Source: Methanobacteriota archaeon
GTDB lineage: Archaea > Thermoplasmatota > Poseidoniia > Poseidoniales > Thalassarchaeaceae
Length of the DNA: 64,000 bases
NCBI GenBank assembly: GCA_002719615.1
Contig: PBHZ01000002.1
Span: forward strand, 49,007-113,006
Direction of reading: 5' to 3'
The notes beneath the pieces were generated by a model. That model was given only the letters and a program-made list of their open reading frames with translations. It made no database searches and was not told the origin of the DNA. Within the stretch, counting starts at the first letter, position 1. Each line of letters opens with the position of its first letter. A program made the translations under genes and the position numbers. Of the stretch, positions 1-41,495 are shown one piece after another.

Positions 1-2
1 AA

Positions 3-131: not shown

Positions 132-149
132 TTTTATTTATATTTTCTA

Positions 150-234: not shown

Positions 235-314
235 AAGCCTATCGCCGAGGCTTCTTGCTTTCAATCGAACTGATAATTAACACCATATTACGATGCATAC
301 AGTGTACTAACTTC

Positions 315-329
315 CCGAACGTTTTAACA
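315..329 (+). promoter_or_regulatory. BRE/TATA-like promoter element CCGAAC-GTTTTAACA about 25 nt upstream of the GTG start at 351 (would imply a leaderless or near-leaderless mRNA)
   Basis: A purine-rich CGAA-type BRE-like element sits directly 5' of an A/T-rich box. A similar CGAAC + GTTAAAAC/GTTTTAAC arrangement recurs at 22425-22440 and 20365-20378. Confidence 0.3.
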
Positions 330-350
330 TTTTGAATACATCCGGGGGTC

Positions 351-3296: not shown

Positions 3297-3315
3297 TTAT
3301 TTTTGATATGTGTAT

Positions 3316-3329
3316 GAACTACGCTCCAT
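3316..3329 (+). promoter_or_regulatory. Conserved 14-nt upstream element GAACTACGCTCCAT, copy 1 (46 nt from its end to ATG 3375)
   Basis: Identical 14-mer at 41431-41444 upstream of the other TSP3-repeat giant gene. Both copies are preceded by TGTnn. It is GC-richer than the surrounding intergenic DNA. Confidence 0.4.
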
Positions 3330-3374
3330 TCTTCTTAAGACCCTCATATATCGCCATTGTTTCAAGGTAGTTTC

Positions 3375-18621: not shown

Positions 18622-20319
18622 TTATTTGACTGCATCTTCAACCATAATCTCTTGATCTAAATTTGCCCTATTCACAAGAATATAACCTATGCCAATTATC
18701 CCTATAATCATTACAATAATTATTGGCATGATGTATGATAAACCTTCTTCATCTTCGTTTATCTGCCAATTCACTGTTTCACTTGTAATATTGCCTCCTC
18801 CAAAAGCGTATTCATCTACTATCTGCATCGGAGTCAATATTATACATTTCAATTCCTCAGCTCCTGATTTACTATTTCTCCAATCAAATATTATCTTCCC
18901 TACCTCTCCTGCCTGAACCAAGGCATCGGGATAATTGTTTGTTTCCGCACTTTCTCCAGTACTATTTAGGTAGCAAGATATCGCAAAATGAGCTGCCGCA
19001 GTTCCTTCATTTACGACTTCTCCTATCATCACTACTGATCCTTTTGCTTCATTTTCATCACCCTCAGATTTCAAACTTAACCACTTTATATCTGGAGTAT
19101 TTTGATCGATTATGGTTATTTTATCATTTGTTAATTTTATTCCTGTTGTCCCATAATTGCCAATTACTGAATTTTCCGGATTCCAGGCTGTTCTATATTT
19201 TATTACATTAATTATAGCTTCTTCTTGCCAAGTATCTTCTGTGGCCCATATATTATCATCAGACCAGCCTATTTCAATAATTCTTTCTCTACCGCCATCT
19301 ATGTATGATCTACCATCATTTCCACTAAAATTAGTATATGTAGGGACTCCATATAGGCCTTTAATTTGATATTCTACCCAAACTGCATCAAATTGAATAT
19401 ATTGTCCTTTTATTCGTCTTTCCCATTTATCGGTTAAATCTCCCGAACCTACAGTGTCGTTACTCCAATGTATGTTACTTTCGGGCATTGCTCTAACATC
19501 ATGATCATCCAAACTACCATCGAAAACAGTTCCTTCATTAAGAGAAATTGATGCATTATTATCATTCAGTAAAATCGGACCAGACCGTAAAAAATTACTT
19601 GAAAAAGCATTGATATCTCCGGTGGATGAGATTTCTGCAGCAATTATGGAAGAGTTATATAAACTGAAATTACCAGATATATCAAGACTATATTCACGGA
19701 GTCCTGAAATCATCATATTACTATATTGCAATTCACTGGCTAAATAATAATTACTAAATCCATCATGGATTATCGATATATTACTTATTCCCACGGGTGT
19801 CGAACCATATCCACAAATTCCTATAGATATTTCATCATCATTTGACTGAGATGAATAGGAGAATTGAGAATTATTCATCATGAATATTTCATTCCCTATG
19901 TAAGCTGTTGCACCATTGAAATTAGTACCACTTGCAGAATTAATTATAATTTCAAAATCTTTTTCATAAGGAGAAATATCTAAAGTAATTGTTGATCTAT
20001 TGAAGTCATCACAGTAACCATATCCTACTAAATCTGTAGGCATACTCTCTGATGTAAATATTGAACTCTCAAGAACAACAAAACCTCCTTCATCTATTGT
20101 TAGTTTGGAGTCTGTAGAAAAAGTTATTACAGAATTGATAATTGTCAATTTTCCACCATCTACAATTCTTATATTTCCGTCAATTTCTTGATCTTCTGTC
20201 CAAGTTATATCCGACTCAATTAAAATTTCATTTGTATTCTCTGCCATACTATTTCCAATAATCATTTGACCTGAAATAAACATTGTCAAAATCAAGATTA
20301 CCATTTGTCTCTTAACCAT
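18622..20319 (-). CDS. Cell-surface protein (565 aa): N-terminal signal/anchor, beta-helix-like and CARDB-like regions, C-terminal TM anchor
   Basis: N-terminus MVILILTMFISGQMIIG. C-terminal TM LSYIMPIIIVMIIGIIGIGYILV followed by NRAN. CARDB-like VVMIGEVVNEGTAAAHFAISCYL. Sequon-rich. Confidence 0.75.
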   Translation of the reverse strand: MVKRQMVILILTMFISGQMIIGNSMAENTNEILIESDITWTEDQEIDGNIRIVDGGKLTIINSVITFSTDSKLTIDEGGFVVLESSIFTSESMPTDLVGYGYCDDFNRSTITLDISPYEKDFEIIINSASGTNFNGATAYIGNEIFMMNNSQFSYSSQSNDDEISIGICGYGSTPVGISNISIIHDGFSNYYLASELQYSNMMISGLREYSLDISGNFSLYNSSIIAAEISSTGDINAFSSNFLRSGPILLNDNNASISLNEGTVFDGSLDDHDVRAMPESNIHWSNDTVGSGDLTDKWERRIKGQYIQFDAVWVEYQIKGLYGVPTYTNFSGNDGRSYIDGGRERIIEIGWSDDNIWATEDTWQEEAIINVIKYRTAWNPENSVIGNYGTTGIKLTNDKITIIDQNTPDIKWLSLKSEGDENEAKGSVVMIGEVVNEGTAAAHFAISCYLNSTGESAETNNYPDALVQAGEVGKIIFDWRNSKSGAEELKCIILTPMQIVDEYAFGGGNITSETVNWQINEDEEGLSYIMPIIIVMIIGIIGIGYILVNRANLDQEIMVEDAVK

Positions 20320-22496: not shown

Positions 22497-25400
22497 ATGG
22501 AAAAAAATGAAGAGGCGGCAAAAGGTAATTTCTTTTATCAAGATATTACTTCTGTTCCTATAATATTAGCTACGTTGATGGTGCTATATTTTGGAATCAG
22601 TTTTGCTGTCAATGGAGATATAGGAAATGAAGAATATATGAACGTCTTGATTCTACCTTTATCCGCTGCATTTGCATCGGCTATTGGTAGGATTAGTACA
22701 TCTCTGCAATTTTCCAAATCCAATACATTACAATCTTTTATCATTCCAATCACGATTGTAGCATTAGCTTTCACAATAGACTTTATAGCTAACTTCAGTA
22801 ATAATGTCTTTATTCTTACATTTACATTGGTTGGGCTAATGTCTATCCTTTTATCTAATTCTAATCGTATTGAAGAAAATAATCTTCTTCTTTCAACTGT
22901 GATAGGATTTCATCTTGCTATTTCTTATGCTTCTAGTTTAACTTTTGATCCTGGACTGGATATAGACTCTCAAAGAACCGATATTGGCATAGCCTTCATA
23001 TCATTCTGGTTAGCATCAATTTCTATTGGTTTTACCTTAGTTGGGTTTTTGAAAGGTGTAATCGATAAAGTTGGAAAAAATCCATTATTTGCAGATATAC
23101 CTATCTTTAAAGAAAATAAATCATTTGTAATATTTTCAAGTATAATTTCTATTGTATACATCATCCCTTTATTCCGATATGATAGTTTTGAAAGTTTAGG
23201 AGTTATATGGGCCGTATCTACAAGTTTAATAATTTTATTTTACGCATATTGTTATTTTGAAAAATGGCATGTTCTTGGTTCTTTGATTCTCGTCAATTGG
23301 TTTATCTTTACTATGGCCCATCTTCAAGAAATCGGTAATAATTTCTATCCAAGTATATTTGAAGAAGAAAGTTTCACAGGTGCATTTTCTTGGTTCTTCA
23401 TAACATTCTGGCTAAACGTAGGAGCAATCACTCTATCTTCAAAAGGTTTCTTTGGAGATATAGCACCAAGAAGAAGTCCAAGTAAATTTAGAATGTGGTG
23501 GGATTCAAATTATTATTCAATTCTAATTCCACTTTCTTTTATCGTCGCTTTGACAGTCAGGGTCGTTTGGAATGTCATACCTGCAATGAATGCACCAGGT
23601 ACAGGAACCTGGGATATGTCCGGAGGTTCAGATCCTTGGTACATGAAGCGTATAGTTGACTATATTTTAGCCAATAATAGCCATCTCATTTTTGATGCCG
23701 ACAGAGCATATCCAATGGGTGCAATAAATCCTAGACCTCCACTTTTCACATGGTCTTTGGCATTGGGTGGTATGGGATTATCGTGGATTCTTGAATCTGA
23801 TAATACTGGCGAAGTTGTTTGGTGGAGTCTCGCTTCTCTGCCAGCTATTTATGGGGCTTTAGTGGTTTTCCCTGTGGCAGGAATAGCCAATAGAGTACAC
23901 GGTAAAAAGGCCGCTATCATTACCGCTTGGCTTATTGCTTTGATGCCAGGACACATTAGTCGTTCAACATTCGGAATGGTAGATCACGACTCTTTTGCAA
24001 TTTTACTCTTGTCAACGGCATTTTACTTTTGGATTAAATCTATTTCTAGCATGAATCAGGAGCGTATTTTCCAAAAAACATCATCAAATCCTCTATATTT
24101 GTTTGCTGGAATAAGAGAGACCTGGCGCAGGAATCCTAAGGTAATGTCCAATGCTACTTTAGCAGGAATCGCTTTCGCCGTTATGGCTTTGGGTTGGAAA
24201 GGTTTCGTTTATGGCCCTGGAATCCTGTTTCTTGTATTTTCACTACAGGTCTTTTTCAATCTATTTCGTTCCAAAGATAGTCTACAACTCACGGCTGCAA
24301 GTTTGCAAATGTTATTTACAGTTCTTTTGATACCTTTGCCGTTTTATGCATGGCCTGGTTTAAATTTGGTTTTGGATCCTAGTGGATTACAACCTTTGTT
24401 CTATATAATCGGTTTTACGTTACTTCTTGGTTGGACATCTTGTTCCTTTAGAGACAAGCCGTGGTTACTTGTTTTAGGTGTTGGTGCTATCCTAATATCT
24501 CTAACACTGGCCTCATTGTATTTATTGCAAGAAGCGAATTTATATGCCGGATGGGACATACTTTTCTCTGGTGGTTTTTACTTTGATAAAAACAAAATCT
24601 TCGGGACAATTGGTGAAGCTCAAGCACCTAGTAGAGGAGTTTTATTCGCATCATATGGTCCAATTGTAGCATTAATAGGATTAGGTTGTGCTTTTGTTTT
24701 CCTTTGGAGAGGCGCCAGAACAAACAAAATGGCATTTACTTTACTTGGCTCTTGGGGAATTATTTCCACCTATATGGCATGGTCTGCTGGGAGATTTATC
24801 ATTAACGCAACACCTGTGATGGCTATCTTGGGAGGAATAGGAATTGCAATGCTTTGGCAATCCGCTAACTTTGCTAACTTTTCCAAAGAATGGAGAAATT
24901 CGGGTATAGGTACTCCTCGTGCTAGATTTAATTCTCTTTGGCCTGCTACCAAGAGAAGTGTTGGAGTACCCGTTTTGATGGTTGTCTTCATGCTAGTTTT
25001 TACTCAACATGTGACTTATGGTATTGATTCAGGGATACCTAGGAACTCACAATCTGCAACAGACGTTGATAAAGCCATTTACGACATAACTCCAGATATT
25101 TTAAGGGAAAATTTACTAGGCGAATTCTCTATACTTGGTGGAGGAGATTATGATCCTTCATCAGTCAATGGGTTGGAATATATGGGTACTTTTGGCCCTA
25201 GTTTTAATTCGTATGGTTGGAATGACGCATATGCATGGTTAGAAGAACAAGATAGGGATAAAGGATTTAGTAATCGTCCAGCATTCTTATCTTGGTGGGA
25301 TTATGGATTTAGTGCCTTAGCACAAGGGCAGCACCCAACTGTAGCAGACAATTTCCAGTCAGGAATACCGCATAGTGGAGGTATGCTTCTATCTCAAGGT

Positions 25401-28400
25401 CAAGATGACACAATCGCACTTTTTATTGCTACATTAGCCATGGGTGATAAGAAATACAACAATGATAAAGTTAGCCCCGAACTTTTAGATTCGATATTAG
25501 ATCCAATGAGTACTACTCAAGTTCAAGAGTTTGCAGATATCCTTTCTAATAAAAAATCCTCATTCGTATTAGATAGGACAATTAAATTACATGCATCATC
25601 TGATGATATAGAATTACTTAGTGGGTATTTGCTAGATTCTAATGGTATTCCTTCGACCACTGAAGAATGGATTGTAGTTGATGCAAGTGGTCTACGAACC
25701 TCACTTGGTGAAAATAAATCGGCAGCACTTTCTTTGTACAACCAAACCCGTGGTTCATCTTCCGTATCTTCTACTGCTTCATCTTGGAATGACAATTTAC
25801 CTCCAAGTCATTACTACATTGGTAATTATAAATATACTAATGATTTAATTCAGGACTTTGATTCTCCATCTACAGCGATTCACAAAACTAATTCTAAATT
25901 AGCTATGTTGAGAAATTTCTTAGTCACAGCATTCGAAACCGATGAATTAGTTGATATTTATCATTCACTTTCTTCTATTACCTATTCCGTTCAAGATTAT
26001 GATAACTCCCTAGGAGAGAATGTAGAAAGAAACAATGAGATTAGATATTTTGCTATCGATAACCGTTTGTACCCATTGGGAGGTGCATATTATGAGGACT
26101 ATGGCTATCACCGCGGTCAAACTACAGGAATCTTCCATGCTCCAACGGGATTATCGGGCTTAGATATGGATGATTACATTGCTACTTTCTATCAATCTCA
26201 GAGAGGAGATGGCCCCATTGTCCCGAGAACTCCTCAGGAATATAATGACGCATACCTTTCGGACTTAGAATTACAACAAAGTGGTGCATTATCTGATTCT
26301 TCACAAGTAATTAGATATGTGGATATAGACTATCAACATCAAGAAAACTTTTTTGAAACAATGGTTGCAAAAACTTACGTTGGTTATGGTTCTAGCACAT
26401 TAGGGCTTGAAGGAGATGCAGAAACTCCATCGGTTTGGGTCAATCCCTCTGCCACAAATAGAATTGGCGCACCTGGATCTTATTTGCAGAATGCATGGAC
26501 TCTACCAGGTGCAATGATGAATCACATGGTTATCTCTAATTGGTATGATAATGACTACGATAATGATGGAACACTTAATGCTAATGATGATTCTAAATGT
26601 GAGGCTTCTATTGAAAGTAATACGACATCAAATTTAACGGTAGGGGATGAAAATATAGAATTGTATGATGCTTCCCAATTTCCATTTATTGGAGGGGCAT
26701 CTCTTTATCATTTTGAAGGTAATCTTTCCATTGATTGGACTGGTAAAGACGGCAACACTCTAACTGGAGTATCTGGAATAAGTAAAGATGTTAGCATGAA
26801 TTCATTACTTTCTCATAATCCCAATCCTTTGTGCAACTCTATTTATGATTCGAATCATTTTGTCAAGATTCTCAAGTATTACAGCGGTGCAACCATCGAG
26901 GGAACTGTCTCTCTTGATGGAGAAGGAATTGTCCCAAACGCACGAATATTAATCGAGAGAGATGCATTTAGTGGTGAAGATGTAATCGATCATGATTCTA
27001 GAACTTATTGGATACCAATAGGATATACAGATGCTAATTCTGAAGGAGAATTCTCATTCACAGTGCCGTCAGGAAAAATACGAGTTTCTGCTTTCATTGG
27101 TGAACCAGACCTAGATTCAGCACGTGCAGCCATAATGAGTTCTGATGTCGGACAGACAATGTTCGAGTTAACTATCGAAAATAACAATCAACAAAGAGCA
27201 ATCAATCACGTTTCAGGAATATTAGGAAATGTCTCTGGTTCTACATGGCTATCTGAAACTGTAATCAACGTATCTGGAGAACAAGGACATAGTAACGGAG
27301 CAGAAAAAATTGAAGTTTCCATAGATGTATCCTCGTCCTCTTCTTCTGGAGTATTGTCCTGGTCTGGAAATGCTGATTTTGATGGAGATCCAATCTTGGA
27401 TGCTCAAGTAATTCTTTCTCCCTCTTCAGAAAAGATAGTTATGGATGATTATATAGTTACTACTTCTAATGGTTCTGTTGAAGGTATTGATTTACAATTC
27501 CAAGGCGAAGGAGAGGTTTCATTTAGTGGCCCAGGAAGCGTACGATCTGATAACATACTATCTGTTTCTGATTTTACAGGTACTCACATACAAAGTATTT
27601 ACAATAATCATAGTGTTTCTGGGGATGGATTGTTTACCGGAGTAGGACAGATTTCAAATGCATTAATACATGATATGATAGAAATAAACGACTGTGAAAA
27701 TAATTCTATTCCAGAAGGAGAGAATATTTGTAAACTAGCAGAAGAAGAATATCTAATGGATGGTAGTATTAATGCATCTGGTAAATATACGTCCGTTGGA
27801 GTATCAACTTTTACTAGGTCACTAAATCAGGCAACACTAATTGGCTCAGGGACATTTACCACTAGCGATGATGAGGATTTGGATTCATATGGAATTATTA
27901 ATGGTACAGGAACATTTTCCGGAACTGGTATATTTAGTGGTCCAATGGTTCAACCTGGTACATTTACAGTCAATAATGCAATTCCTGGATTATATGACAT
28001 TTCACTAATACTTGAAGATGGTTCAACGGTTGATTTAGATGATACGTTCAATGTCCCATTACTATCCTCCTTAGCACCTGTTCTAGTTGATGTTCCAGCA
28101 GGCTCGATATCGGGCTCATTAATCGACTCTTCAGGAGAAGTTGTAAATTCGCCAATTTCATTGATACCCGATGATAATACATCAGTATCTGATGATGCTG
28201 TTGAAGATTGTTCAATCGTGGGCTATGCACCTTGTTTGATTTATCCTGATGAAGAAGGAAAGATAATATTCGGCCCAATAACTCCTGGATCATATATTGC
28301 AGAGATTGATTCGGATATGGATGGAATGCCCGAAGTAAAAGAAATATTTGTCTTTGACACAGATACGCCAGTTGATGCTATATTCCCTTCTCCTTTGCCT

Positions 28401-31400
28401 GATACTTCTGATATCCATTTCACAATATTGGATGAAGGGGAAACTCTTGGAGACCTAAATATCTCATTCTATCCTGTTAATGCCCCAGATCAGCAAGTAT
28501 CAGCAAAGTATAATTCAGAATCAACAGATTATTTTGTCGAATTGACTCATGGTACTTGGATTTTAAGTCATAATATTGATGATAATAAGCAAATATGGGA
28601 GAGTATCGATGTAGGCTCAGAAGATATGAATTTAGAAATAAATATAGAAATTAGTAAGAAAATTTCTGGTATAGTAAAAAATACAATACAAACTGATCCA
28701 ATAACAGGAGACCCAGTTGAAGATGCTTTGCCAAATACTCTGGTTTCTTTCTATTGGAATAACTTGAGCACATCAACATATACAAATTTAGAAGGTGAAT
28801 TTGAAGTTACATTACCGATAAATTCTGTCGTTGACATCTCAGTACAGTATTCGCTCGATAAAGCATACTCTTCTAATATTAGATTCACTGTCAATGATAT
28901 TTTGTCAGACTCTCAAAATATCACACTAATAGTTGAAGAATCTGTGATAATTGAAGGTACTGTAAGTATAGATGTAATAGGTAATTATTATTCAGATACA
29001 TTGAAAGATTGGAGTGAAATCAGTGTTATTGCCTCTCAAACGCCTGAAAATTCCAGCCTCCCAGAAATCAGACAAATTGTAGATTCCAGTGGAAATTTCC
29101 AAATGTATATGAAAGAAGGGGATTGGAAATTTAGTTTAACAGGTAATTCATTAGAAAGTACTGATCAAAATATTTCTATAAATAGTACGAACAAAATCGT
29201 TGATTTAACAATGGTATCAGCAAAAAGTACCATTTTAATCGATTTTTACATAGATCATAGTGAGGATGGTAATATTTCTAATGGAACTCCAGTATCATAC
29301 CCATTTGCTATAAAATCTTTGAATCCTTTCATACCTGACAGAGAAATTTCATCAGATAGCTCTGAATGGATTTCAGAAGGTCGTGCAGAAGTAAGTCTAA
29401 CTCCCGGTTCGTATTCAATAGTAATTGATAGGCCAAATCCCGATTCTGGAAATTTATTTGATACACTTTATACCACAAATGACAATATTCACATTGGTCT
29501 CATATCCGAGAATATTTCAACATCCATAGCCTTCGAACCTAATTGGCTTACTAATATCACTTTCAATAATGAAAGTGGAGGTGCACTTTCTGATCATCTT
29601 GTAAGATTTAAAGACATTGAAAATGGATGGTTATTATCCTTTATGACCGATTCTTCTGGCTCAATTTCAGAATATATTCCTGAAGGAGAATGGATGGTTA
29701 TAATAGAAACCTTTGAGGCTGATGTTGGTATTTATCAAAGTCTAAGGGAATCAGTATCCATTTCTTCATCTTCGGCAGGCCTTAATTCATCTATGAATAC
29801 TGCAGAGGTTGCCATGGTAAATATTATTTTGTTAGATGATAATTCACCTTTATCTGATGTCCAAATTAATCTCATAAGTACCGAAAGAGGTATCGTAGAT
29901 TCTCCATATTCAAATGATTTAGGAATAATTGATTTAAAAATAGAGCCAGGTTTATGGAATTTGGAATTGAATTATACTGACTCTGAAGGAGTTATGTGGA
30001 TTATTGAAAGTATGCCAATTTCTGACTCAGGCCTTACAGCTGGAAATAATACAGAGGTATTGCTAAATGTGACTAAGTTAGTCACAGTAAAAGGAACAGT
30101 ATTTTGGGATCTAAATGATAATCAACAACCCAATTTAGGAGAAGGTGTTTCCAATGTTACTGTAACATTAAATTCAACAACAGAAAATCATATTCTAACT
30201 ACTGATGAAAATGGAGCATGGTCAACATATTTATTATACGGAGGAACATGGAATATCTCTACATATATTGAGGGTTTTAGTAATGAATCATCTACTATAT
30301 CTCTAATATCAAATTCTAATTCAAAACATATACAGATTACTGCAGGGACAGTTCCTGTTTCTGGTAGTATATCTTATATTGATGAGGATCAATTCAATCA
30401 GATAAAAGACGATCTTACAATACTTTTAGTTCCAGCCGAAGGAATAATCAGAGATCGAGTAATTCCTAATTTAGTGTTGGATTCTAGTAGTTCATGGAAT
30501 GGAGAGTGGAATGCTATGGTTGAACCCGGAGATTGGACTGTCTGGGCATTTGGTTCCTCATCCTCAGATGTTACATATCTTGTTTCAGTAGATTCCATTG
30601 ATGTCGGTGTAGATGGCGGAACAATCGATTCTGAATTATCACTTGGTGGTAAATTATTACTCAATACTGAATGGCTGGATTATGATGGGATATCTCACCC
30701 ACTTACTGATATTGAATCGCATAATATTGTTATAAAGCTACAGGAATCAGGTATAAGTTGGGATGAATCTTTGAATTCTGAAGGGCTACTAGAATTAATA
30801 TTGCCAGTTGGAAGAATGGATGCTTCTAGTTCGTTTAACATAACTCAAGAAGAAAGAGATATGGATTATTATGGCGGTCAAGGAGCAACTATAAGGCCAT
30901 CCCAAGACACTCCCGTGACTACTCTAGTAATTGATAGATTATCTAAACAAGATATTTCTGTATCGGATATTGGAGATGGTCATGCTCTTCTCTCTCTTAA
31001 CAATACAAATTGTGCAAGTGATTGTGATTATGAAAATGTTGAATTTAGATTAAAAATAGATTATTTAGGTCATCAAGCATTCGATAGTTATTCGGTTACT
31101 GCTGTTGTTCCTGGTGCAGATGGCGATGAATGGGCAGTCGAATTCAAAAACTCTACTGGCTCATGGACTTCGTCTACTACAATTGATCTAGGATTACAAA
31201 ATACACTTGTTTTGGATAACTTTGATGTTCGCGTAAACCCACCCAATGAATCAGTTGCTCATCACTTATCTAATGGTCACCAAATAAGAATCATCTTCAC
31301 TACTGACCAAGGATATAGTCTAGAACATCCATTATTGGTGAATGTACCTCAAAATAATATGTTTAGTTCAATAGGATACGCTGAAGAAGTAATCGGTGTT

Positions 31401-32177
31401 GCTCCCGGTGCACCATCAATTATCAATTTTGATTTCATCAATGATGGAAATGGAGATGATGTATTCACATTTGACTTCTCTGTAGATTCCTCGGAAAATT
31501 GGAATATAGCAGGAATAAACTCTCAGCCAATTGCTCCATTTTCAGAAGGTCAAACCTCGGTTACAATTACTCCTCCAATTAATATGTCTGAAGATCCCTA
31601 TAAACTAAGTCTTTCAGTAACCGACACTGCAGATAATTCTTATGGTCCATTTGATGTGATTATTCAAAAATCATCTCCAATACTATCTTTGTCCTCTTCA
31701 TCAAAGATTCAACTATTGAGTGGTGATTCTGGGCCAATAGCTGGAGAAATTGCCACATATCTAGTCAAAGTAGAAAATGATGGACTTATCGATGCCGAGT
31801 CAGTAGAACTAAATGTGATTCTTTGTGAAGATATCTATTGTAATGAAAGAATAAATGTCAACGGTTCTGATATTCGCAATGTACCTGCAAATGGTGAAGC
31901 CACCTTCTATGTTGAAATGAATTTCAAAAATATTGAAGTAGGTAAATATTTCGTTCAAATATACTTCACAGATATACCTCGAATAGATTCCAGTGATCTT
32001 ATGTCTTGTGTAGATTTGACTCCTGGTCAGACAGAATGTACCATGGAAGCCCAAACTCTAGCTCCTGGTACAGATACGGAACAACCTATTTTGGGTTATG
32101 CTGTTGGTATATTTTTAGTAATCATAATTTTATATATAATTAGTCGCTCCACCAGAAGACCGGGAGCACCATTCTAG
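22497..32177 (+). CDS. aglB: Giant fusion protein (3226 aa): polytopic N-terminal block + STT3/AglB oligosaccharyltransferase core + about 2000 aa of beta-sandwich (CarboxypepD_reg / SdrD-B / CARDB-like) repeats + C-terminal TM anchor
   Basis: STT3 motifs occur in canonical order: GGSDPWYMKR, MVDHDSF (DxD-type), GTIGEAQ (TIxE) and SWWDYGFS...VADNFQSG (WWDYG). C-terminal repeats include IEGTVSLDGEGIVPNARILIE and VKGTVFWDLNDNQQPNLGEGVSNVTVTLN. Terminal TM is ILGYAVGIFLVIIILYIISRSTRR. Confidence 0.85.
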   Translation: MEKNEEAAKGNFFYQDITSVPIILATLMVLYFGISFAVNGDIGNEEYMNVLILPLSAAFASAIGRISTSLQFSKSNTLQSFIIPITIVALAFTIDFIANFSNNVFILTFTLVGLMSILLSNSNRIEENNLLLSTVIGFHLAISYASSLTFDPGLDIDSQRTDIGIAFISFWLASISIGFTLVGFLKGVIDKVGKNPLFADIPIFKENKSFVIFSSIISIVYIIPLFRYDSFESLGVIWAVSTSLIILFYAYCYFEKWHVLGSLILVNWFIFTMAHLQEIGNNFYPSIFEEESFTGAFSWFFITFWLNVGAITLSSKGFFGDIAPRRSPSKFRMWWDSNYYSILIPLSFIVALTVRVVWNVIPAMNAPGTGTWDMSGGSDPWYMKRIVDYILANNSHLIFDADRAYPMGAINPRPPLFTWSLALGGMGLSWILESDNTGEVVWWSLASLPAIYGALVVFPVAGIANRVHGKKAAIITAWLIALMPGHISRSTFGMVDHDSFAILLLSTAFYFWIKSISSMNQERIFQKTSSNPLYLFAGIRETWRRNPKVMSNATLAGIAFAVMALGWKGFVYGPGILFLVFSLQVFFNLFRSKDSLQLTAASLQMLFTVLLIPLPFYAWPGLNLVLDPSGLQPLFYIIGFTLLLGWTSCSFRDKPWLLVLGVGAILISLTLASLYLLQEANLYAGWDILFSGGFYFDKNKIFGTIGEAQAPSRGVLFASYGPIVALIGLGCAFVFLWRGARTNKMAFTLLGSWGIISTYMAWSAGRFIINATPVMAILGGIGIAMLWQSANFANFSKEWRNSGIGTPRARFNSLWPATKRSVGVPVLMVVFMLVFTQHVTYGIDSGIPRNSQSATDVDKAIYDITPDILRENLLGEFSILGGGDYDPSSVNGLEYMGTFGPSFNSYGWNDAYAWLEEQDRDKGFSNRPAFLSWWDYGFSALAQGQHPTVADNFQSGIPHSGGMLLSQGQDDTIALFIATLAMGDKKYNNDKVSPELLDSILDPMSTTQVQEFADILSNKKSSFVLDRTIKLHASSDDIELLSGYLLDSNGIPSTTEEWIVVDASGLRTSLGENKSAALSLYNQTRGSSSVSSTASSWNDNLPPSHYYIGNYKYTNDLIQDFDSPSTAIHKTNSKLAMLRNFLVTAFETDELVDIYHSLSSITYSVQDYDNSLGENVERNNEIRYFAIDNRLYPLGGAYYEDYGYHRGQTTGIFHAPTGLSGLDMDDYIATFYQSQRGDGPIVPRTPQEYNDAYLSDLELQQSGALSDSSQVIRYVDIDYQHQENFFETMVAKTYVGYGSSTLGLEGDAETPSVWVNPSATNRIGAPGSYLQNAWTLPGAMMNHMVISNWYDNDYDNDGTLNANDDSKCEASIESNTTSNLTVGDENIELYDASQFPFIGGASLYHFEGNLSIDWTGKDGNTLTGVSGISKDVSMNSLLSHNPNPLCNSIYDSNHFVKILKYYSGATIEGTVSLDGEGIVPNARILIERDAFSGEDVIDHDSRTYWIPIGYTDANSEGEFSFTVPSGKIRVSAFIGEPDLDSARAAIMSSDVGQTMFELTIENNNQQRAINHVSGILGNVSGSTWLSETVINVSGEQGHSNGAEKIEVSIDVSSSSSSGVLSWSGNADFDGDPILDAQVILSPSSEKIVMDDYIVTTSNGSVEGIDLQFQGEGEVSFSGPGSVRSDNILSVSDFTGTHIQSIYNNHSVSGDGLFTGVGQISNALIHDMIEINDCENNSIPEGENICKLAEEEYLMDGSINASGKYTSVGVSTFTRSLNQATLIGSGTFTTSDDEDLDSYGIINGTGTFSGTGIFSGPMVQPGTFTVNNAIPGLYDISLILEDGSTVDLDDTFNVPLLSSLAPVLVDVPAGSISGSLIDSSGEVVNSPISLIPDDNTSVSDDAVEDCSIVGYAPCLIYPDEEGKIIFGPITPGSYIAEIDSDMDGMPEVKEIFVFDTDTPVDAIFPSPLPDTSDIHFTILDEGETLGDLNISFYPVNAPDQQVSAKYNSESTDYFVELTHGTWILSHNIDDNKQIWESIDVGSEDMNLEINIEISKKISGIVKNTIQTDPITGDPVEDALPNTLVSFYWNNLSTSTYTNLEGEFEVTLPINSVVDISVQYSLDKAYSSNIRFTVNDILSDSQNITLIVEESVIIEGTVSIDVIGNYYSDTLKDWSEISVIASQTPENSSLPEIRQIVDSSGNFQMYMKEGDWKFSLTGNSLESTDQNISINSTNKIVDLTMVSAKSTILIDFYIDHSEDGNISNGTPVSYPFAIKSLNPFIPDREISSDSSEWISEGRAEVSLTPGSYSIVIDRPNPDSGNLFDTLYTTNDNIHIGLISENISTSIAFEPNWLTNITFNNESGGALSDHLVRFKDIENGWLLSFMTDSSGSISEYIPEGEWMVIIETFEADVGIYQSLRESVSISSSSAGLNSSMNTAEVAMVNIILLDDNSPLSDVQINLISTERGIVDSPYSNDLGIIDLKIEPGLWNLELNYTDSEGVMWIIESMPISDSGLTAGNNTEVLLNVTKLVTVKGTVFWDLNDNQQPNLGEGVSNVTVTLNSTTENHILTTDENGAWSTYLLYGGTWNISTYIEGFSNESSTISLISNSNSKHIQITAGTVPVSGSISYIDEDQFNQIKDDLTILLVPAEGIIRDRVIPNLVLDSSSSWNGEWNAMVEPGDWTVWAFGSSSSDVTYLVSVDSIDVGVDGGTIDSELSLGGKLLLNTEWLDYDGISHPLTDIESHNIVIKLQESGISWDESLNSEGLLELILPVGRMDASSSFNITQEERDMDYYGGQGATIRPSQDTPVTTLVIDRLSKQDISVSDIGDGHALLSLNNTNCASDCDYENVEFRLKIDYLGHQAFDSYSVTAVVPGADGDEWAVEFKNSTGSWTSSTTIDLGLQNTLVLDNFDVRVNPPNESVAHHLSNGHQIRIIFTTDQGYSLEHPLLVNVPQNNMFSSIGYAEEVIGVAPGAPSIINFDFINDGNGDDVFTFDFSVDSSENWNIAGINSQPIAPFSEGQTSVTITPPINMSEDPYKLSLSVTDTADNSYGPFDVIIQKSSPILSLSSSSKIQLLSGDSGPIAGEIATYLVKVENDGLIDAESVELNVILCEDIYCNERINVNGSDIRNVPANGEATFYVEMNFKNIEVGKYFVQIYFTDIPRIDSSDLMSCVDLTPGQTECTMEAQTLAPGTDTEQPILGYAVGIFLVIIILYIISRSTRRPGAPF

Positions 32178-32211
32178 AATCACCAGTGATTACGGATGCG
32201 TATGATTTATT

Positions 32212-33450
32212 ATGACACAAAGTTTTGATAATTTAGAGCTTCTACCAGAGCCTGAAGATCCAGATATTCTGACTGCTATTGACAAGAATGCACCAGGATA
32301 TCCGGGCCAGCTTTATGGGGTAAGCGATAAAGATGCAAAGATTTTACGTAGATTTTTTGTGCCTGTAAAACGCTTTATTTGGCCTTGGGGGGCGTTAGCG
32401 TTCACATTTTTTACTGCCTTTCTTATAGTTGGATGGCCATTTATTGATGCCTTCCTTTCTCCATATCTTCCAGATTCTGAATGGGCGTATGAAGATACAG
32501 GGATCAGAGAAATACAGAATATGGGCTATTTGGGAGAAGGCATAAGAGTCTGTATGGTCGATACAGGGATAGATCTTAATCACCCAGATTTAATGCATAT
32601 TTCTTTATCTGGATTCAGAGATTTCTACTATAATGATCATTCTGATATTAGAGATATAGGGGATAATTTTCACGGGACTCTGATGTCTGGTATATTACTA
32701 TCAAATGGAACATTCATTGGAGCGGCTCCAAAAATCTCTCTATCTGTTGCAATATCTCTAGGGCCTTCAGGAAAATCTGGTCAAGAAGATATGGTTTCAC
32801 AGGCGATAAGATGGTGCAGAATTTCGCAAGATGCAGATATTATCAGCTTAAGTCTTGGAGCTAACCCAGGAATGGGAATGGATGATGAATCTGAGACAGT
32901 CATTGCAGTTCAAGAAGCATTAGATGCTGGTATCTTTGTAGTTGCTGCTGCAGGAAACACTGGACTAGATGAAGAAATAACAGATGTTTCCATCCCTGCC
33001 AATATTGAGGGCGTTATTTCAGTAGCTGCAACAAATAAAAATGGTAATATTTGGAAAAATAGTGCAATCGGATCATCTATAGATTCATATACGGGAGAAG
33101 AAAGACTCTTCCCAAATCAAAAACCAGAAATTTCTGCCCCGGGTGTCAGACTGTATTCTACATATTCATCTAGTTCAGATTCTTCTCTTTATGCTTATTC
33201 TTCTGGTACTAGCGATTCAACGGTTTTGGTTACAGGTGCCTTAGCATTAATTTTGGAGAGATATTACGAAGATATTGCTGGAGAAGATGGTAAAATAGAT
33301 TACTCAGAAATCAATCGAGTTAAGTTAGCATTGGCAAATTCAGCAATTTCTGATGATAAAAACATGCCTCATCATCCTCAAAAAGGATATGGTAAATTAA
33401 ATGCTATTTCTTGGTCCGATGAAATTAAAATTGAGTTCGGTGTCGAGTAA
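32212..33450 (+). CDS. Membrane-anchored subtilisin-family (S8) serine protease
   Basis: Catalytic triad contexts VCMVDTGIDLNHPDL (Asp), HGTLMSGIL (His) and SGTSDSTVLVTGALALI (Ser). N-terminal TM WGALAFTFFTAFLIVGWPF. Confidence 0.9.
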   Translation: MTQSFDNLELLPEPEDPDILTAIDKNAPGYPGQLYGVSDKDAKILRRFFVPVKRFIWPWGALAFTFFTAFLIVGWPFIDAFLSPYLPDSEWAYEDTGIREIQNMGYLGEGIRVCMVDTGIDLNHPDLMHISLSGFRDFYYNDHSDIRDIGDNFHGTLMSGILLSNGTFIGAAPKISLSVAISLGPSGKSGQEDMVSQAIRWCRISQDADIISLSLGANPGMGMDDESETVIAVQEALDAGIFVVAAAGNTGLDEEITDVSIPANIEGVISVAATNKNGNIWKNSAIGSSIDSYTGEERLFPNQKPEISAPGVRLYSTYSSSSDSSLYAYSSGTSDSTVLVTGALALILERYYEDIAGEDGKIDYSEINRVKLALANSAISDDKNMPHHPQKGYGKLNAISWSDEIKIEFGVE

Positions 33451-33540
33451 ATAATTTAAAACATAATATTCTCTGTAATATGACATTCTCACATTGCCAT
33501 TACTCCTATCTTTAAATGAACACAACACTCCTCAAACATT

Positions 33541-36500
33541 ATGAGGGAGCGCTTTAGAGTGAGTATTATGAGTAACAATGTAAGGTCAAGAAGTTCGTTT
33601 CTAGTTTTCTTAATGATTTCTAGCCTTCTAGTTTCATTTATCGGTCCAGTTTCTACAGTTTCTGCCTCAAACGAAACCTCTGTGGGGACAATTACCGGTA
33701 CTGAAACATGGTCTGGGCTTCATCAATTAACTGGAGATGTTACAATTGCAACAGGTGCGCAATTAATCATCAATCCAGGCACAACTATCTCTGCATCCAA
33801 TGGAACGCATATTGATGTAAGAGGGAGTATTTGCATAGGTGAAATCAGTTGCGGTGCTAGTTCTAATGCTAATCCAAGTCAAAAAATAACATTCCAATGG
33901 TCTAATCCAGTCAATGAAAGTGCTACAGGCGATTGTCTCGATCTAGAACAAAATGGACAAAAGATTACGGTTACAGACCCCTCTTGTTACGAGGGTATCC
34001 TTATCAGGAGTTCTATTGACTTGTCATTAACCGGCATCAGATACTTGGTAATGGATGGGGCTTATGGTGTCCCTCATTTTATTGATGCCGTAAATGAATG
34101 GAGATATGGAGCACTGGTTATTGACGGAGCTAGTCCTGTTATCACAAACATAGATTTCAATGATATCAACACTTCCAGTGTTTTAACAACCAGTCTCGCT
34201 CAACCTACATTTATCGATAGCTCATTTTCCGTAGGTAATGATGATGAAAGTGGAGTTGGTGGTTCTGCAATGCAAATTTATGCATCTGGATCTTCAGTAG
34301 CACCATTTACATTAGATAATCCATATTTCAAAGATGGAACAGAAAGAGGTTGTGAACAAAACGCGGGCGGACGTTCTGCAATGTGGATACAGGATTCTTT
34401 TGTTGATATCGATAATGCTGATATTCAATTCGGAGACTATGGATTATCAATTCGAAACTCAGCCGGGGAAATATCAAATTCAGTAATTTCAGTTACTTGC
34501 ACAGGCGTAGGGATTCAAGGTAAAAGAACTGTAAGTTCCAACTCTTTTCCATTTGACGTACTCAACAATGAGATTACAACTGATCAAGGAGGACCAATAG
34601 TAGTTACTTCCCAAGGCTTAACAAATATAATTTCAAATGAAATTTCAGGATCTAGTCAGGGTTCGGGAATAGTTGTAGTTGCCAGTCAGGCAGAAATACA
34701 CAATAATGAAATCGGCCCAATTGGAGGTTGGAATGGAATATGGTTACGAAGTACATTTGATGTAGTTGTCGAGAATAACAGTATTGCAGAAACTAATGCT
34801 GAACCAATTGTTGCAGGTAGTTATTACTATTCGGATACAGCCATATCACGTTTATACCTTGCAAATAATGAAATTTCAACGGATGGTACTGGAACGTGTT
34901 CAAGCAATAAGTGGTGGGGCGGTGAATTTGCATGTCCTGCTGTAATGATATTCAGAACAGGAACAACTATTCATGATAATGATATTTCAGCCGGTGCTGC
35001 AAATGGAATTATGGCTATTGGGTCATTGTTAGATGTACAAAGAAATACGTTCGATGGGGCATCAACAGGTGCGGTAATAAAGAATTATGATGATGGCGCT
35101 TTAGGAAGTCAACAGTATGGTTCTCTGGCATTTTTTGCTGAAAATACATGGTTAAATGTTGAAAAGACTTACAATATTACGAAGAGTTCTGTAACTGTTC
35201 AATCTGAGTCAATACCTAGTGCGCCTTCCGGTGAGCATCCGGTTCGTCTCTCTTGGCCGGATCAAGAAGCATGGTCATACAATAATTTTCAAACATCAAT
35301 AGTCCCTCCTCCAATAAAAAATTGTCCTGCTTGTGATGAGATATTACCCAGAAACTTTCCTTTGGCAATTAGTATGGACAATAATTCTACTGTATTTACG
35401 TTTTCTAATCTGACTAATCTAGATACCGATAATATCTTTATTGAAACTCAACCAACACACTATGCAGTTCAAGTCAGCCGTGCAGAATTAGTACGATTAC
35501 AAGCACTTATCAACGGTCTAAAGGTATCTGAAGCTTTGGTTTTGATAGAAGATGCACTAGGAAATGATTTGTATTCTCTAATTACCGATGAAAATGGATA
35601 TACTCCCTGGTTTTCTTTACCTTCCAATTTCCATCTTGACTTCAGAGGACTGGGTGGCGGAGATAATCCGGATGGCTTCGCTGATGATGAATACGAAGAC
35701 TCATGTTTCGATGGCATAGATAATGATGGTGATTTGACTCTAGACATGGATGATTCTGATTGTGACTACTCACAGGGAACTAGGGAACTTTCACGTTACT
35801 TCTATACAATATACAAATTTGATGCAGGTTATAAAACCGGAGAATTTACACTCGATGAATCAACATATCAAGACTCTATAGAATTAGAAAATATCGCACC
35901 GACCGTTTCAATAACTCAAGATGATTATCATTCCTACAGAAATATCGTAAATATAACTGGAAGTGCGCATGATGGTATCTTATCCAACGCATATGCAACT
36001 GATGAACTCGCACAGTGGAGTCAGAGAGGTTATGTACACAGTGTAGAAGTCAAGAATCCATTTACAAGTTCATGGGAAACTGCTTCTCTTGCAGTAGATG
36101 ATAGCGGCGCTGATCCTGCTAAAGTAACAAGGTTTAATCATCCATTCAAAGATTGGTATTATGAACTTGATATGTCAGATAAACAAGAAGGCAATTATCT
36201 GTTTGAATTCCGTGCCTTCGATGGTACTGATTACAGTCCAGTTGTTTCTAAATTAATTAAGTTAAACACCGAAGCACCAACTATCTTAGTAACCAATCCT
36301 AGTTCACTTTCCACACATTCTGATGGTACAATTCATTTCGAAGGTTATGCATCTGATTCATACGGTTGTGATATTGGAGAATGTAACAAAGATATTGATA
36401 AAATCTATCTCTTGATTGAAGGGCCATCCATTGGCGATATAGATGGTGATGGGGAAGACGACTCATTTAGGATGCCAGTCCCAGTAGATGCAAGCGAAAT

Positions 36501-37878: not shown

Positions 37879-37978
37879 TTGCATTACAAAATTTTTTGGT
37901 TAAATATGTTGTCAATTTAAAAAATGCATGAATCTTTTCTCACCAACATTATTGAATGATGATTCGGGTTGACCGGCT

Positions 37979-40507: not shown

Positions 40508-41314
40508 TCATAAAACTCTGATTCTTTCTTCATCCTGTTGACCTAGATAGTGACTAAATTCCGGTCCTATTTGTCTAGAGATGGCTATATTTCCATTATA
40601 TTTATCTCCAATATGGTATAATACTTCACTTTCTGCAAGGTGAGGCGCATTGTTTTTATCTGATAAATGACATAGAACTATACTCTCTAATTTTGTATGC
40701 ATAACTTCAGAAAGTAATTTACCTGTTTGAAAATTAGATAAGTGCCCACCCCTGCCAGAAATTCTTCTTTTCAGAGATTCAGGATAACTACTCATAAACA
40801 ATTTTTTTTGATCATAATTAGCTTCTATTGAAATATGTCTACATCCATCGAGATATTTTTTTAATTCTATTGTAGATTCTCCCAAATCTGTAAGAAAGGC
40901 AGCCTTTTCTCCTCTTCCACTGTTCGTAATAATTGCAACATTATCAGCTTTATCATGGGGAATTGGAACGCCTATAAAACTAAAATTATGACCACATTCA
41001 ACTATATCTAGGTTGTTAAAAGTCTTACATGTATTAATTGGTTCCCAGCCCATTTTTATCGCTGTTTGTATATTACAGTGTAATTCAGAGCCCCATTTTT
41101 TTGACGCCCTTTCTGCCGAGTTAGAATGATCTCCATGATGATGCGTCACAATAATTGAACTAATATCTCTTCCTTCCAGGCCAATACTTTTCAGTTTCTT
41201 TTCAGTCTGTAACAGTGAAAAACCACAATCGATTAAAATATTCTCATTATCAGTGCTCAATAGAGTAGCATTACCTTTACTACCTGACCCAAGATGAGTT
41301 ATTTTTAGGCTCAT
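40508..41314 (-). CDS. Metallo-beta-lactamase-fold hydrolase (YycJ/PhnP-like)
   Basis: HxHxDH motif IVTHHHGDHSN. N-terminal LGSGSKGNATLL..ILIDCG. Downstream His/Asp ligand positions (PHDKADN, CHLS). Confidence 0.85.
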   Translation of the reverse strand: MSLKITHLGSGSKGNATLLSTDNENILIDCGFSLLQTEKKLKSIGLEGRDISSIIVTHHHGDHSNSAERASKKWGSELHCNIQTAIKMGWEPINTCKTFNNLDIVECGHNFSFIGVPIPHDKADNVAIITNSGRGEKAAFLTDLGESTIELKKYLDGCRHISIEANYDQKKLFMSSYPESLKRRISGRGGHLSNFQTGKLLSEVMHTKLESIVLCHLSDKNNAPHLAESEVLYHIGDKYNGNIAISRQIGPEFSHYLGQQDEERIRVL

Positions 41315-41430
41315 GTTGTACCTAGCGGCATGTATCTTGGTCTATGAATAAATGGTTTTTTTTAATACTTAATTATAGTTTTTTTATTGTTTTAATATAT
41401 CTTCAAAACATTTATTTTTTCTTTCTGTCC

Positions 41431-41444
41431 GAACTACGCTCCAT
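41431..41444 (+). promoter_or_regulatory. Conserved 14-nt upstream element GAACTACGCTCCAT, copy 2 (52 nt from its end to ATG 41496)
   Basis: Identical to 3316-3329. It lies in the divergent spacer between the MBL hydrolase and the 1902-aa TSP3 giant. Confidence 0.4.
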
Positions 41445-41495
41445 CAGTATGATAAATCACTTTACTCTGCTAAATCTGTTAATCGGTGAGTATCA

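Follow-up and report, generated by a model that had tools for sequence, protein, structure and literature searches.

In the textbook picture, archaeal AglB works alone and has some 600-1000 aa. In eukaryotes, the oligosaccharyltransferase (OST) subunits ribophorin I/Ost1, ribophorin II/Swp1 and OST48/Wbp1 are luminal beta-sandwiches with one C-terminal helix that stand beside STT3, and NOMO, a protein of the ER that is regarded as a spacer, forms a rod of prealbumin-like domains. Tandem CnaB/prealbumin-like beta-sandwiches also build the Gram-positive pilins and MSCRAMM stalks (BcpA, SpaA, RrgB, SdrD and the TIE protein of B. anthracis), which are sortase-polymerised or wall-anchored adhesins without an enzyme module. 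Few archaea of the surface ocean are as abundant as those of Marine Group II; to our knowledge, the group has no cultured representative, and its cell envelope is essentially unknown.

The aglB gene described here lies in a stretch of 64,000 nucleotides (the window, analysed as a whole) from a Marine Group II archaeon. Its product, a giant AglB of 3226 aa, finds both its best sequence match and its best fold match in AglB-L of Archaeoglobus fulgidus (A. fulgidus), an archaeal OST of known structure (PDB 3WAJ, 3WAK, 5GMY, 7E9S). The two proteins share a GT-C/STT3 core of 13 membrane helices, the GGxDPWY loop Asp, the DH(D) and WWDYG motifs, and an extracellular C-terminal domain. A. fulgidus AglB-L, however, has 875 aa, in line with the statement of the initial annotation of this DNA that characterised AglB enzymes are several-fold shorter (here about 3.7-fold), and it lacks the 10-helix N-terminal module, the 1740-aa beta array, the second anchor and the conserved cytoplasmic tail of the giant AglB. 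The extracellular domains of the two proteins show no recognisable sequence similarity.

The giant aglB locus across Marine Group II

The gene and its downstream neighbour are located as follows.

22497..32177, + strand: complete giant aglB ORF, 3226 aa plus stop, uninterrupted; the ORF is kept in 52/56 complete Marine Group II loci
32212..33450, + strand: gene of an S8 subtilase, 35 nt downstream of aglB; membrane-anchored; Pfam Peptidase_S8 E 1.3e-36

The ORF begins with ATG and runs for 3226 codons with zero internal stops, which bears out the uninterrupted frame of 9.7 kb in the initial annotation. That annotation had also raised the concern of a chimeric assembly, a missed stop or a frameshift, by which a normal aglB and the gene of a surface protein behind it would appear as one, and had proposed a survey of related MAGs and SAGs for the fusion. 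Among 56 complete loci of Marine Group II (Poseidoniales), the ORF is interrupted in four, as such an artefact could explain, but 52 independent assemblies carry the same frame of 3100-3400 codons as a single ORF with APF at its end; among them are a PacBio assembly, single-cell genomes and two long-read contigs (0.7 and 1.6 Mb). Orthologues of full length (3100-3340 aa) form more than 100 protein clusters from NCBI, ENA, JGI, Tara and Logan, and the giant AglB is colinear and conserved over its full length, with the frame kept across 45-92% identity. A chimera or frameshift is effectively refuted by the 52 intact loci, and its probability is practically nil. The giant form is typical of the order Poseidoniales and already present in databases: some orthologues are annotated as STT3 or “dolichyl-phosphooligosaccharide-protein glycotransferase”, and the GTDB species genomes contain 446 matches to the giant family.

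The gene order CarS, PurD, aglB, S8 is found at every locus where it can be judged, and an S8 homologue lies downstream in 55/55 loci with enough flanking sequence. The S8 peptidase carries an N-terminal signal anchor and is a possible candidate for a processing protease. No other STT3 gene was seen within the 64-kb window. A 9.5-kb orthologue in SIMO Bin 19-2 is listed as aglB/GT66/K07151 in a published supplementary table; among the gene-table entries listed for this bin, the giant aglB is the single COG1287/K07151 entry. According to the published metatranscriptome, this orthologue is transcribed and enriched in situ (log2 fold change 2.05). In the literature on AglB, N-glycosylation and the S-layer of Marine Group II/Poseidoniales, no description of the giant-AglB architecture was found. 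The only trace found is an entry in a gene table together with a mention of transcript enrichment.

The STT3 core and its catalytic motifs

The transmembrane core and the four motifs that are diagnostic of STT3/AglB are placed as follows.

23502..25019, + strand: STT3/AglB transmembrane core, aa 336-841, located by Pfam and NCBIfam profiles, AglB alignment and Foldseek
23622..23651, + strand: GGSDPWYMKR, aa 376-385, with the first external-loop Asp (D379); aligned to GGNDPWY of A. fulgidus AglB
23976..23996, + strand: MVDHDSF, DxD-type motif, aa 494-500, with D496 and D498
24603..24623, + strand: GTIGEAQ, TIxE motif, aa 703-709, with E707
25290..25313, + strand: SWWDYGFS, WWDYG motif, aa 932-939; WWDYG (aa 933-937) aligned to WWDYG of A. 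fulgidus AglB

These spans enclose the nucleotide ranges of the initial annotation, whose canonical order of the four motifs is upheld. A significant match to an STT3 profile, which it had named as a check, was obtained both with Pfam STT3 (PF02516; E 3.5e-16, 60.2 bits against a cut-off of 24.5, aa 378-781), which matches 10/10 members of the giant family tested, and with NCBIfam archaeo_STT3 (TIGR04154; E 3.5e-49, aa 344-967). The TIGR04154 score of 167.9 bits is far under the curated 450-bit cut-off of this archaeosortase A system-associated subfamily; judged by this score, the giant AglB is a relative of the subfamily and not a member. Alignment with A. fulgidus AglB (3waj/5gmy; E 2.8e-12) matches up GGNDPWY, DH and WWDYG, with D496-H497 paired with the D-H of that enzyme (vDHd versus nDHh). 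Foldseek ranks 1-19 are all AglB, STT3 or PglB (E down to 6.4e-9, probability 1.00), obtained with a core-containing AlphaFold model of moderate quality (pLDDT 68; TM-score 0.35-0.47 normalised to the target), and pLDDT is below 50 for the catalytic loops and the WWDYG region in both models.

All four motif patterns are present in 120/120 homologues, with pairwise identity down to 44%, and the motifs are invariant in alignments of diverse family members. The TIxE assignment (T-I-G-E, aa 704-707) stands at the pattern level, without alignment to a solved structure; T704, I705 and E707 are invariant in the homologue alignment. The core is the best-conserved region of the protein, with about 70% identity in that alignment versus 30-55% in the extension. 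The DK/MI motif of the Ser/Thr pocket was not located in sequence and profile searches of the extracellular domain against the solved AglB C-terminal domains; the block IRYFAIDNRLYPLGG is a tentative candidate for it. The core is a genuine AglB/STT3 core inside one protein that is anchored at both ends.

Flanking modules and the wider STT3 family

The regions around the core are delimited as follows.

22497..23501, + strand: N-terminal extension, aa 1-335, with 10 predicted membrane helices and the N-terminus predicted inside the cell
25020..26546, + strand: enlarged extracellular catalytic-side domain, aa 842-1350, mixed alpha/beta in AlphaFold models
26547..26846, + strand: clade-specific insertion/linker, aa 1351-1450, low pLDDT
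26847..32066, + strand: extracellular beta-sandwich array, aa 1451-3190, prealbumin/CnaB/CarboxypepD_reg-like, acidic and sequon-rich
32088..32144, + strand: C-terminal membrane anchor ILGYAVGIFLVIIILYIIS, aa 3198-3216; its hydropathy of 2.72 is the highest in the protein
32145..32174, + strand: conserved cytoplasmic tail RSTRRPGAPF-COOH

Regarding the N-terminal module, the approximately 330 aa of extra polytopic sequence that the initial annotation placed before the core are confirmed: the AglB alignment begins at about aa 339, and ten confident AlphaFold helices occupy aa 19-314 (aa 19-39, 47-67, 76-97, 103-121, 125-146, 156-185, 209-225, 236-254, 258-278 and 293-314), mostly with pLDDT 80-93. 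The placement of K/R in the loops agrees with the positive-inside rule, and the invariant residues include E126, R160, W171, E255, E278, G280 and the cluster G317-F319-G320-D321. Profile searches of Pfam and PDB gave zero matches to the module, which appears, on sequence comparison, to be family-specific and without detectable relatives. Its derivation from a duplicated STT3 membrane domain was ruled out (hhalign probability 0.3%).

Past the core, the initial annotation had recognised about 2000 aa of repeated beta-sandwich modules. A long beta stalk is indeed present; its all-beta part, however, spans about 1740 aa (aa 1451-3190) and is preceded by an enlarged mixed alpha/beta periplasmic domain (aa 842-1450), which refines the boundary of the stalk, and its repetition is seen at the profile level only. 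BLAST self-comparison of the protein gave zero internal repeats, and profiles detected a duplication between aa 1830-2217 and aa 2303-2678 (E 2e-11). Among the domain names proposed for the modules, CarboxypepD_reg (PF13620) is retained, with 38.1 bits summed over weak stretches against the Pfam whole-protein cut-off of 32.3 and matches in 9/10 family members (best E 6.2e-19) and support from the fold matches, whereas SdrD_B (PF17210; 18.8-20.9 bits against 29.7, aa 2534-2589) and CARDB (PF07705; 14.9 bits against 22.7, E 0.032, near aa 3076-3114) stay under their cut-offs in this protein; SdrD_B is found in 1/10 homologues (E 5.4e-6). Rather than a variable repeat array, the extension is an orthologous region, colinear and inherited vertically.

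In the domain of aa 842-1350, the blocks that are invariant include IRYFAxDxxLxPLGG, YHRGQTTGIF and PGAMMN, and conservation is 50-74% except in the variable aa 1001-1100 (27-43%). Searches of aa 985-1620 and of the aa 1100-1345 profile against PDB sequences, including the solved AglB C-terminal domains, gave nothing significant. In the linker that follows, gaps take up 58-68% of homologue residues and identity is 11-12%, and the first beta domain past it (aa 1451-1600) is 69-75% conserved, which is level with the catalytic core. An all-beta fold is modelled for aa 1600-2040 with pLDDT 85-93, and the top Foldseek matches of aa 841-2040 are the Bacillus anthracis TIE protein, Gram-positive pilins, SdrD and alpha-2-macroglobulin. 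Because the TM-scores are low (0.13-0.26), only the domain type matches that of pilins and MSCRAMMs, and the “adhesin-like” label would reflect this modelled fold resemblance only. The beta array holds 33 N-x-S/T sequons versus 23.4 expected, and the density in the extension is 1.9 per 100 aa versus 0.2-0.7 in cytoplasmic neighbours. The invariant Cys pairs C1733/C1745 and C1905/C1913 and a DxDxDG-like site (D1938, D1940, D1942), a possible candidate for Ca binding, agree with an extracellular location.

The second membrane anchor at the C-terminus, likewise anticipated by the initial annotation, is the sole strong membrane-helix candidate past aa 840, and equivalent helices are found in homologues. 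A weak hydrophobic stretch at aa 1853-1871 falls within the all-beta region. The tail after the anchor is conserved, with [AP]PF terminating 117/120 homologues. As a general sorting signal, RRPGAPF was ruled out, with zero other ORFs in the window carrying the tail. With respect to the PGF-CTERM signal of archaeosortase A substrates, the PGF tripeptide is absent ahead of the C-terminal helix, the C-terminus reading ...EQPILGYAVGIFLVIIILYIISRSTRRPGAPF, and an NCBIfam sorting-signal search of the giant AglB gave zero matches.

The initial annotation had suggested that such a fusion would be a new architecture. This does not hold, given the more than 100 public orthologues, the GTDB matches and the similar extension in more distant proteins: among the best 150 cluster representatives, 83 are STT3 proteins that measure 2000-2999 aa and likewise carry a C-terminal anchor behind a homologous extension. 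Two of them are named by source, both from uncultured Thermoplasmata (e.g., MFA5772382.1). Their core is 30-37% identical, and their beta-sandwich extension is homologous and colinear (E 1.5e-48 over 1128 columns); pairwise phmmer detected almost nothing of the latter, and profile-profile comparison was needed. A C-terminal membrane helix is present in 82/83, followed by a basic tail in 78/83. In contrast to the giant AglB, these proteins are about 1000 aa shorter and lack the 330-aa N-terminal module, with the D-loop motif at about aa 30-150; they also lack the ...APF tail, nine of them have a PGF-CTERM-like signal, and no S8 gene is adjacent at the one locus examined. As these proteins carry both the homologous extension and the anchor, the fusion is old and not unique to the giant AglB.

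Proposed function and implications

The giant AglB is probably a genuine, catalytically competent OST (GT66/STT3) of this Marine Group II archaeon (Poseidoniales, MGIIb/Thalassarchaeaceae), in the giant form typical of its order. The core has the usual acidic residues (D379, D496/D498, E707), and WWDYG would serve as the Ser/Thr-binding motif on the outer face. By analogy with the solved AglB and PglB, the enzyme would transfer a dolichol-phosphate-linked glycan to Asn of N-x-S/T sequons in exported proteins at the outer membrane face. We infer its activity, donor, acceptor and status as sole OST from sequence and analogy, and we also infer the roles of the extension, the N-terminal module and the tail. 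As the extracellular part (about 2350 aa) is tethered at both ends, it forms an arch, which, going by modelled fold and topology, is probably a glycosylated scaffold or spacer. Such an arch, rigid and itself N-glycosylated, would hold the enzyme in the glycoprotein coat of the cell or offer substrates to it, instead of working as an adhesin in its own right. Glycosylation of neighbouring giant proteins, as suggested initially, is plausible.

The conservation of aa 1451-1600 at the level of the core suggests tight functional coupling of the enzyme and the beta array, while the invariably adjacent S8 protease makes a shorter mature enzyme possible. In the latter case, the exported precursor would be cleaved, e.g., by the S8 subtilase, into an AglB of normal size (about aa 1-1350 or 1-1600) and a C-terminally anchored surface glycoprotein, and the fusion would serve co-expression and co-localisation only. 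The signal-anchored S8 peptidase directly downstream at all 55 loci fits such processing, as does the indel-rich, low-confidence and poorly conserved linker of aa 1351-1450 exactly between the enzyme and the beta array. We nevertheless regard it as rather unlikely, with the core-like conservation of the first beta domain speaking against a cut at this point and the 2000-2999-aa relatives retaining the fusion, the one examined having no S8 gene next to it.

It is highly improbable that the STT3 module is non-catalytic and serves as the polytopic anchor or glycan-binding module of an adhesion fibre, a recruitment of the OST fold that the initial annotation had entertained. The similarity of the extension to pilins and MSCRAMM B domains, the failure to find the DK/MI motif and the score under the NCBIfam subfamily cut-off would agree with such a change of role. 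A mere anchor or lectin is unlikely, however, because none of the 120 homologues lacks a catalytic motif and conservation peaks in the core; the motifs are invariant even in diverse alignments, the fibre evolves faster than the core, and no other STT3 was found in the window or among the gene-table entries listed for the MAG.

Going beyond a catalytically competent OST in giant form, a single-chain “holo-OST”, in which the N-terminal module, the arch and the tail act as built-in accessories of translocation-coupled glycosylation, is distinctly improbable. The 10-helix module may then supply or recycle lipid-linked glycan; we know of no identification of the flippase/dolichol-phosphate handling step in Archaea. 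The arch and the returning C-terminal helix may replace the eukaryotic non-catalytic subunits in substrate capture, spacing and docking, and the RRPGAPF tail may link the protein to a partner in the cytoplasm, e.g., the secretion apparatus. The comparison with the eukaryotic subunits and NOMO, i.e., beta-sandwiches with a single C-terminal membrane helix at STT3, is a speculative functional analogy; the subunits are separate there and one polypeptide here, and no sequence homology of the giant AglB to ribophorins or OST48 was detected. A Pfam NOMO1-like match is borne by a Thermoplasmata relative (P0140).

The N-glycosylation enzyme of Marine Group II appears to be a protein of about 3200 aa with 24 helices that is doubly tethered, and other uncultured Thermoplasmata have giant STT3 proteins, too; the textbook view that archaeal AglB stands alone is therefore incomplete. 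The giant AglB family is a natural experiment on which extra domains an OST needs, with the eukaryotic complex adding comparable beta-sandwich, single-helix subunits as separate proteins. The orphan membrane module, physically joined to an OST, is a candidate for lipid-linked-glycan handling. If the single-chain reading were true, Marine Group II cells would glycosylate proteins during translocation by means of one 24-helix polypeptide. As a large conserved surface protein, the giant AglB is also a candidate virus receptor, marker or enrichment target for Marine Group II cells.

Domain organization of the giant AglB

A single ORF that starts with ATG and runs for 3226 codons (window 22497-32177, + strand) encodes the giant AglB, confirming the uninterrupted reading frame reported in the initial annotation. 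Its product is organized as follows.

aa 1-335, N-terminal module: 10 membrane helices, N-terminus inside (AlphaFold, conservation)
aa 336-841, STT3 core: 13-helix GT-C membrane domain (conservation, Foldseek)
aa 376-385, GGSDPWYMKR: motif 1
aa 494-500, MVDHDSF: motif 2
aa 703-709, GTIGEAQ: motif 3
aa 842-1350, extracellular domain: mixed alpha/beta, enlarged (conservation, models)
aa 932-939, SWWDYGFS: motif 4
aa 1351-1450 (window 26547-26846, +), linker/insertion: variable, clade-specific, low model confidence
aa 1451-3190, beta array: tandem beta-sandwich domains (model, Foldseek, Pfam)
aa 3198-3226, C-terminal anchor and tail: membrane helix, then RSTRRPGAPF-COOH (hydropathy, conservation)
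window 32145-32174 (+), cytoplasmic tail RSTRRPGAPF-COOH: terminal [AP]PF

All four STT3/AglB motifs were found in the canonical order initially described, and the profile search proposed at that time gave a Pfam STT3 match at aa 378-781 (E 3.5e-16, 60 bits) above the cut-off of 24.5 bits. The NCBIfam archaeo_STT3 profile scores 168 bits over aa 344-967 (E 3.5e-49), well under its 450-bit subfamily cut-off. Among solved structures, Archaeoglobus fulgidus AglB-L (875 aa; E 2.8e-12) is the closest, and its GGNDPWY, the D-H of its second motif and its WWDYG align with GGSDPWY, D496-H497 and WWDYG, respectively. The STT3 core is the best-conserved part among 120 homologues (~70% identity), and all four motif patterns are kept in 120/120. 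A Foldseek search against the PDB placed AglB, yeast and human STT3, and PglB at ranks 1-19; AlphaFold confidence is low in the catalytic loops.

The extra polytopic membrane sequence noted ahead of the core corresponds to ten predicted helices, mostly at pLDDT 80-93 (model from 34 family sequences; mean pLDDT 68, pTM 0.61). Lys/Arg clustering in alternate loops of this module is consistent with a topology in which the N-terminus lies inside and the module runs into STT3 helix 1 at its cytoplasmic start. E126, R160, E255 and E278 are among its invariant polar residues, and E278 belongs to a conserved HLxEIGN block (aa 275-281). Nothing was matched in Pfam or in a PDB profile search, and no similarity to the STT3 core was found.

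The extracellular domain (aa 842-1350) shows 50-74% identity among the 120 homologues, except for a variable stretch at aa 1001-1100 (27-43%), and contains the conserved blocks IRYFAxDxxLxPLGG and YHRGQTTGIF. It has no sequence match to solved AglB C-terminal domains because it is too diverged, and the DK/MI motif was not located. Lineage-specific inserts sit at discrete sites along the extracellular part and include the ~100-aa insert of the window's clade (aa 1351-1450), a TSP3-like, Asp-rich insert in homologue P0026 and a Gly/Ser-rich one in homologue P0047.

Structure prediction of the beta array, which covers aa 1600-2040, gave an all-beta fold (pLDDT 85-93) with very long strands at ~aa 1660-1815. 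Foldseek matches include the B. anthracis TIE protein, Gram-positive pilins, SdrD, alpha-2-macroglobulin MG domains and the Sulfolobus protein SlaB, and CarboxypepD_reg is present in 9/10 family members. Beta-sandwich modules were thus correctly recognized in the initial annotation, but their description as repeats holds in part: BLAST found no repeats among the domains, and an old block duplication is visible only at the profile level. The array is acidic, its Cys pairs are invariant, and it carries 33 sequons against 23.4 expected from composition.

Hydropathy analysis revealed numerous hydrophobic segments before aa 840 and, past this point, aa 3198-3216 as the sole strong membrane-helix candidate, in agreement with the second, C-terminal anchor previously proposed; a weak hydrophobic stretch (aa 1853-1871) falls within the all-beta region. 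The chain ends in [AP]PF in 117/120 homologues, an ending that no other ORF in the window shares, and more distant MGII-type (Marine Group II, Poseidoniales) proteins terminate in PF or RF. The tail was rejected as a PGF-CTERM, whose signal it lacks, and it matches no known sorting or docking motif.

Conservation of the gene and its locus

A protein search with the giant AglB yielded 501 relatives, the best 120 of which are nearly all 3100-3340 aa long, with 100% query coverage and 42-92% identity, and come from NCBI, ENA, JGI, Tara and Logan. Relatives carry names such as 'Candidatus Poseidoniales archaeon', 'STT3 domain-containing protein' and 'dolichyl-phosphooligosaccharide-protein glycotransferase, uncultured marine group II/III'. 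When one genome per GTDB species was scanned, 446 encoding stretches turned up, and MGII accounts for all of the best 80. Identity to the window is 97% for isolate SAT1553 and 94% for an MGIIb-N1 Thalassarchaeaceae genome.

An intact ORF of 3100-3400 codons ending in APF is present in 52/56 loci complete at both ends, including a PacBio assembly, 0.70- and 1.60-Mb long-read contigs and single-cell genomes. The gene order is fixed: genes for a 565-aa membrane protein (57/57 loci), CDP-archaeol synthase (CarS; 62/62) and PurD (67/67) lie upstream, and an S8 subtilase gene (55/55) lies downstream. These intact loci and the fixed order rule out an assembly product, and the survey of related MAGs and SAGs envisaged in the initial annotation finds the fusion conserved. 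The giant aglB is a real, conserved gene. In the other four loci (of the set L004-L083) the ORF is broken into fragments of ~600-2700 codons, probably through MAG consensus errors or as pseudogenes. Neighboring genes in the window are the following.

3357-12314 (+): 2985-aa protein with transglutaminase core, bacterial TSP3 repeats, CarboxypepD_reg and DUF4129
18622-20319 (-): 565-aa protein with signal-like N-terminus and C-terminal membrane helix, no Pfam match
32212-33450 (+): S8 subtilase with N-terminal signal-anchor helix, 35 nt downstream of giant aglB
33541-47204: conserved block with a 1445-aa beta-helix/Big_7 protein, an 842-aa AAA_16/TPR STAND ATPase, a metallo-beta-lactamase-fold gene (minus strand) and a 1902-aa protein without Pfam match

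With 2.85 sequons per 100 aa (~2x expected), the 2985-aa protein ranks first in the window for sequon density and is therefore likely a heavily N-glycosylated surface protein. An orthologue with 44% identity has the 33541-47204 block in the same order at its loci (L001-L003).

A published coastal study lists the orthologue of MAG SIMO Bin 19-2 as gene 305 (27778-37315, 9.5 kb), annotated aglB/GT66/K07151 and flanked by purD and a 'halolysin' S8 gene (PMC9723583). Enrichment of its transcripts (log2 fold change 2.05) was seen while that genus was active, and it is the only COG1287/K07151 among the SIMO Bin 19-2 table entries listed (PMC9723583).

Relationship to other long STT3 proteins

When aa 1-1200 were searched exhaustively against 1.84 billion cluster representatives, 800 relatives were obtained. 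Ten of the top 150 are MGII-type (3146-3228 aa, C-terminal PF or RF), and the match begins at or near the N-terminus in 9/10. Another 83 are 2000-2999 aa long and match only query aa ~330-1000, and therefore lack the N-terminal module; a C-terminal hydrophobic helix is present in 82/83, in most cases with a basic tail after it. In profile-profile comparison of the extension alone, that of the MGII proteins is homologous and colinear with that of the 2000-2999-aa proteins (E 1.5e-48 over 1128 columns), and the STT3-stalk-anchor fusion is therefore old. The architecture is thus not new, contrary to what had been suggested; what sets the MGII proteins apart from these shorter ones is the N-terminal module, several insertions and the APF tail.

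PGF-CTERM-like signals (P-G/S-F, helix, basic tail) terminate 9/83 of the shorter proteins (P0139, P0156, P0157, P0165, P0185, P0188, P0189, P0228 and P0233), which may themselves be archaeosortase substrates. The two source-named 2000-2999-aa proteins are from 'Thermoplasmata archaeon' MAGs. The gene for P0140, a 2449-aa long STT3 from a Thermoplasmata MAG (L084/L085, positions 1-7762), directly follows a >8300-aa ORF (8356 aa) at a locus also holding a 1077-aa Ig/PKD protein, which suggests that in other lineages, too, long OSTs are found grouped with giant surface proteins.

Predicted function and significance

The invariant motifs, a core evolving more slowly than the stalk, single-copy synteny and in-situ transcription point one way: the giant AglB is most likely the working oligosaccharyltransferase and not a decayed anchor. 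The first two also argue against recruitment of the OST fold as an anchoring module, an alternative raised in the initial annotation. By analogy with solved AglB and PglB, the loop Asp, the DxD motif and the TIxE Glu would activate the acceptor Asn with metal assistance, the +2 Ser/Thr would be bound by WWDYG, and the glycan would be moved from a dolichol-phosphate carrier at the outer face of the membrane.

Held in the membrane at both ends, the ~2350-aa extracellular part has to form an arch. The rigid build of this arch from tandem beta-sandwiches, a possible Ca-binding (DxDxDG-like) motif and the sequon enrichment suggest that it serves as a glycosylated structural scaffold or spacer, which may be comparable in principle to NOMO and to the beta-sandwich, single-helix accessory subunits of eukaryotic OST. 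The main rival reading is that the giant AglB is a precursor cut in the linker by the adjacent S8 protease; the invariable adjacency of the protease gene and the variability of aa 1351-1450 fit this less probable reading, and the subtilase may process the giant AglB. For the N-terminal module, the arch and the tail, the proposed roles are hypotheses.

Sequences of the giant AglB are already public under generic annotations, one being listed as 'aglB' in a supplementary table, and no literature discussion of its size, double anchoring, N-terminal module or tail was found. The giant AglB is not a new class of system, but archaeal glycobiologists would find it surprising, and it has ecological relevance.
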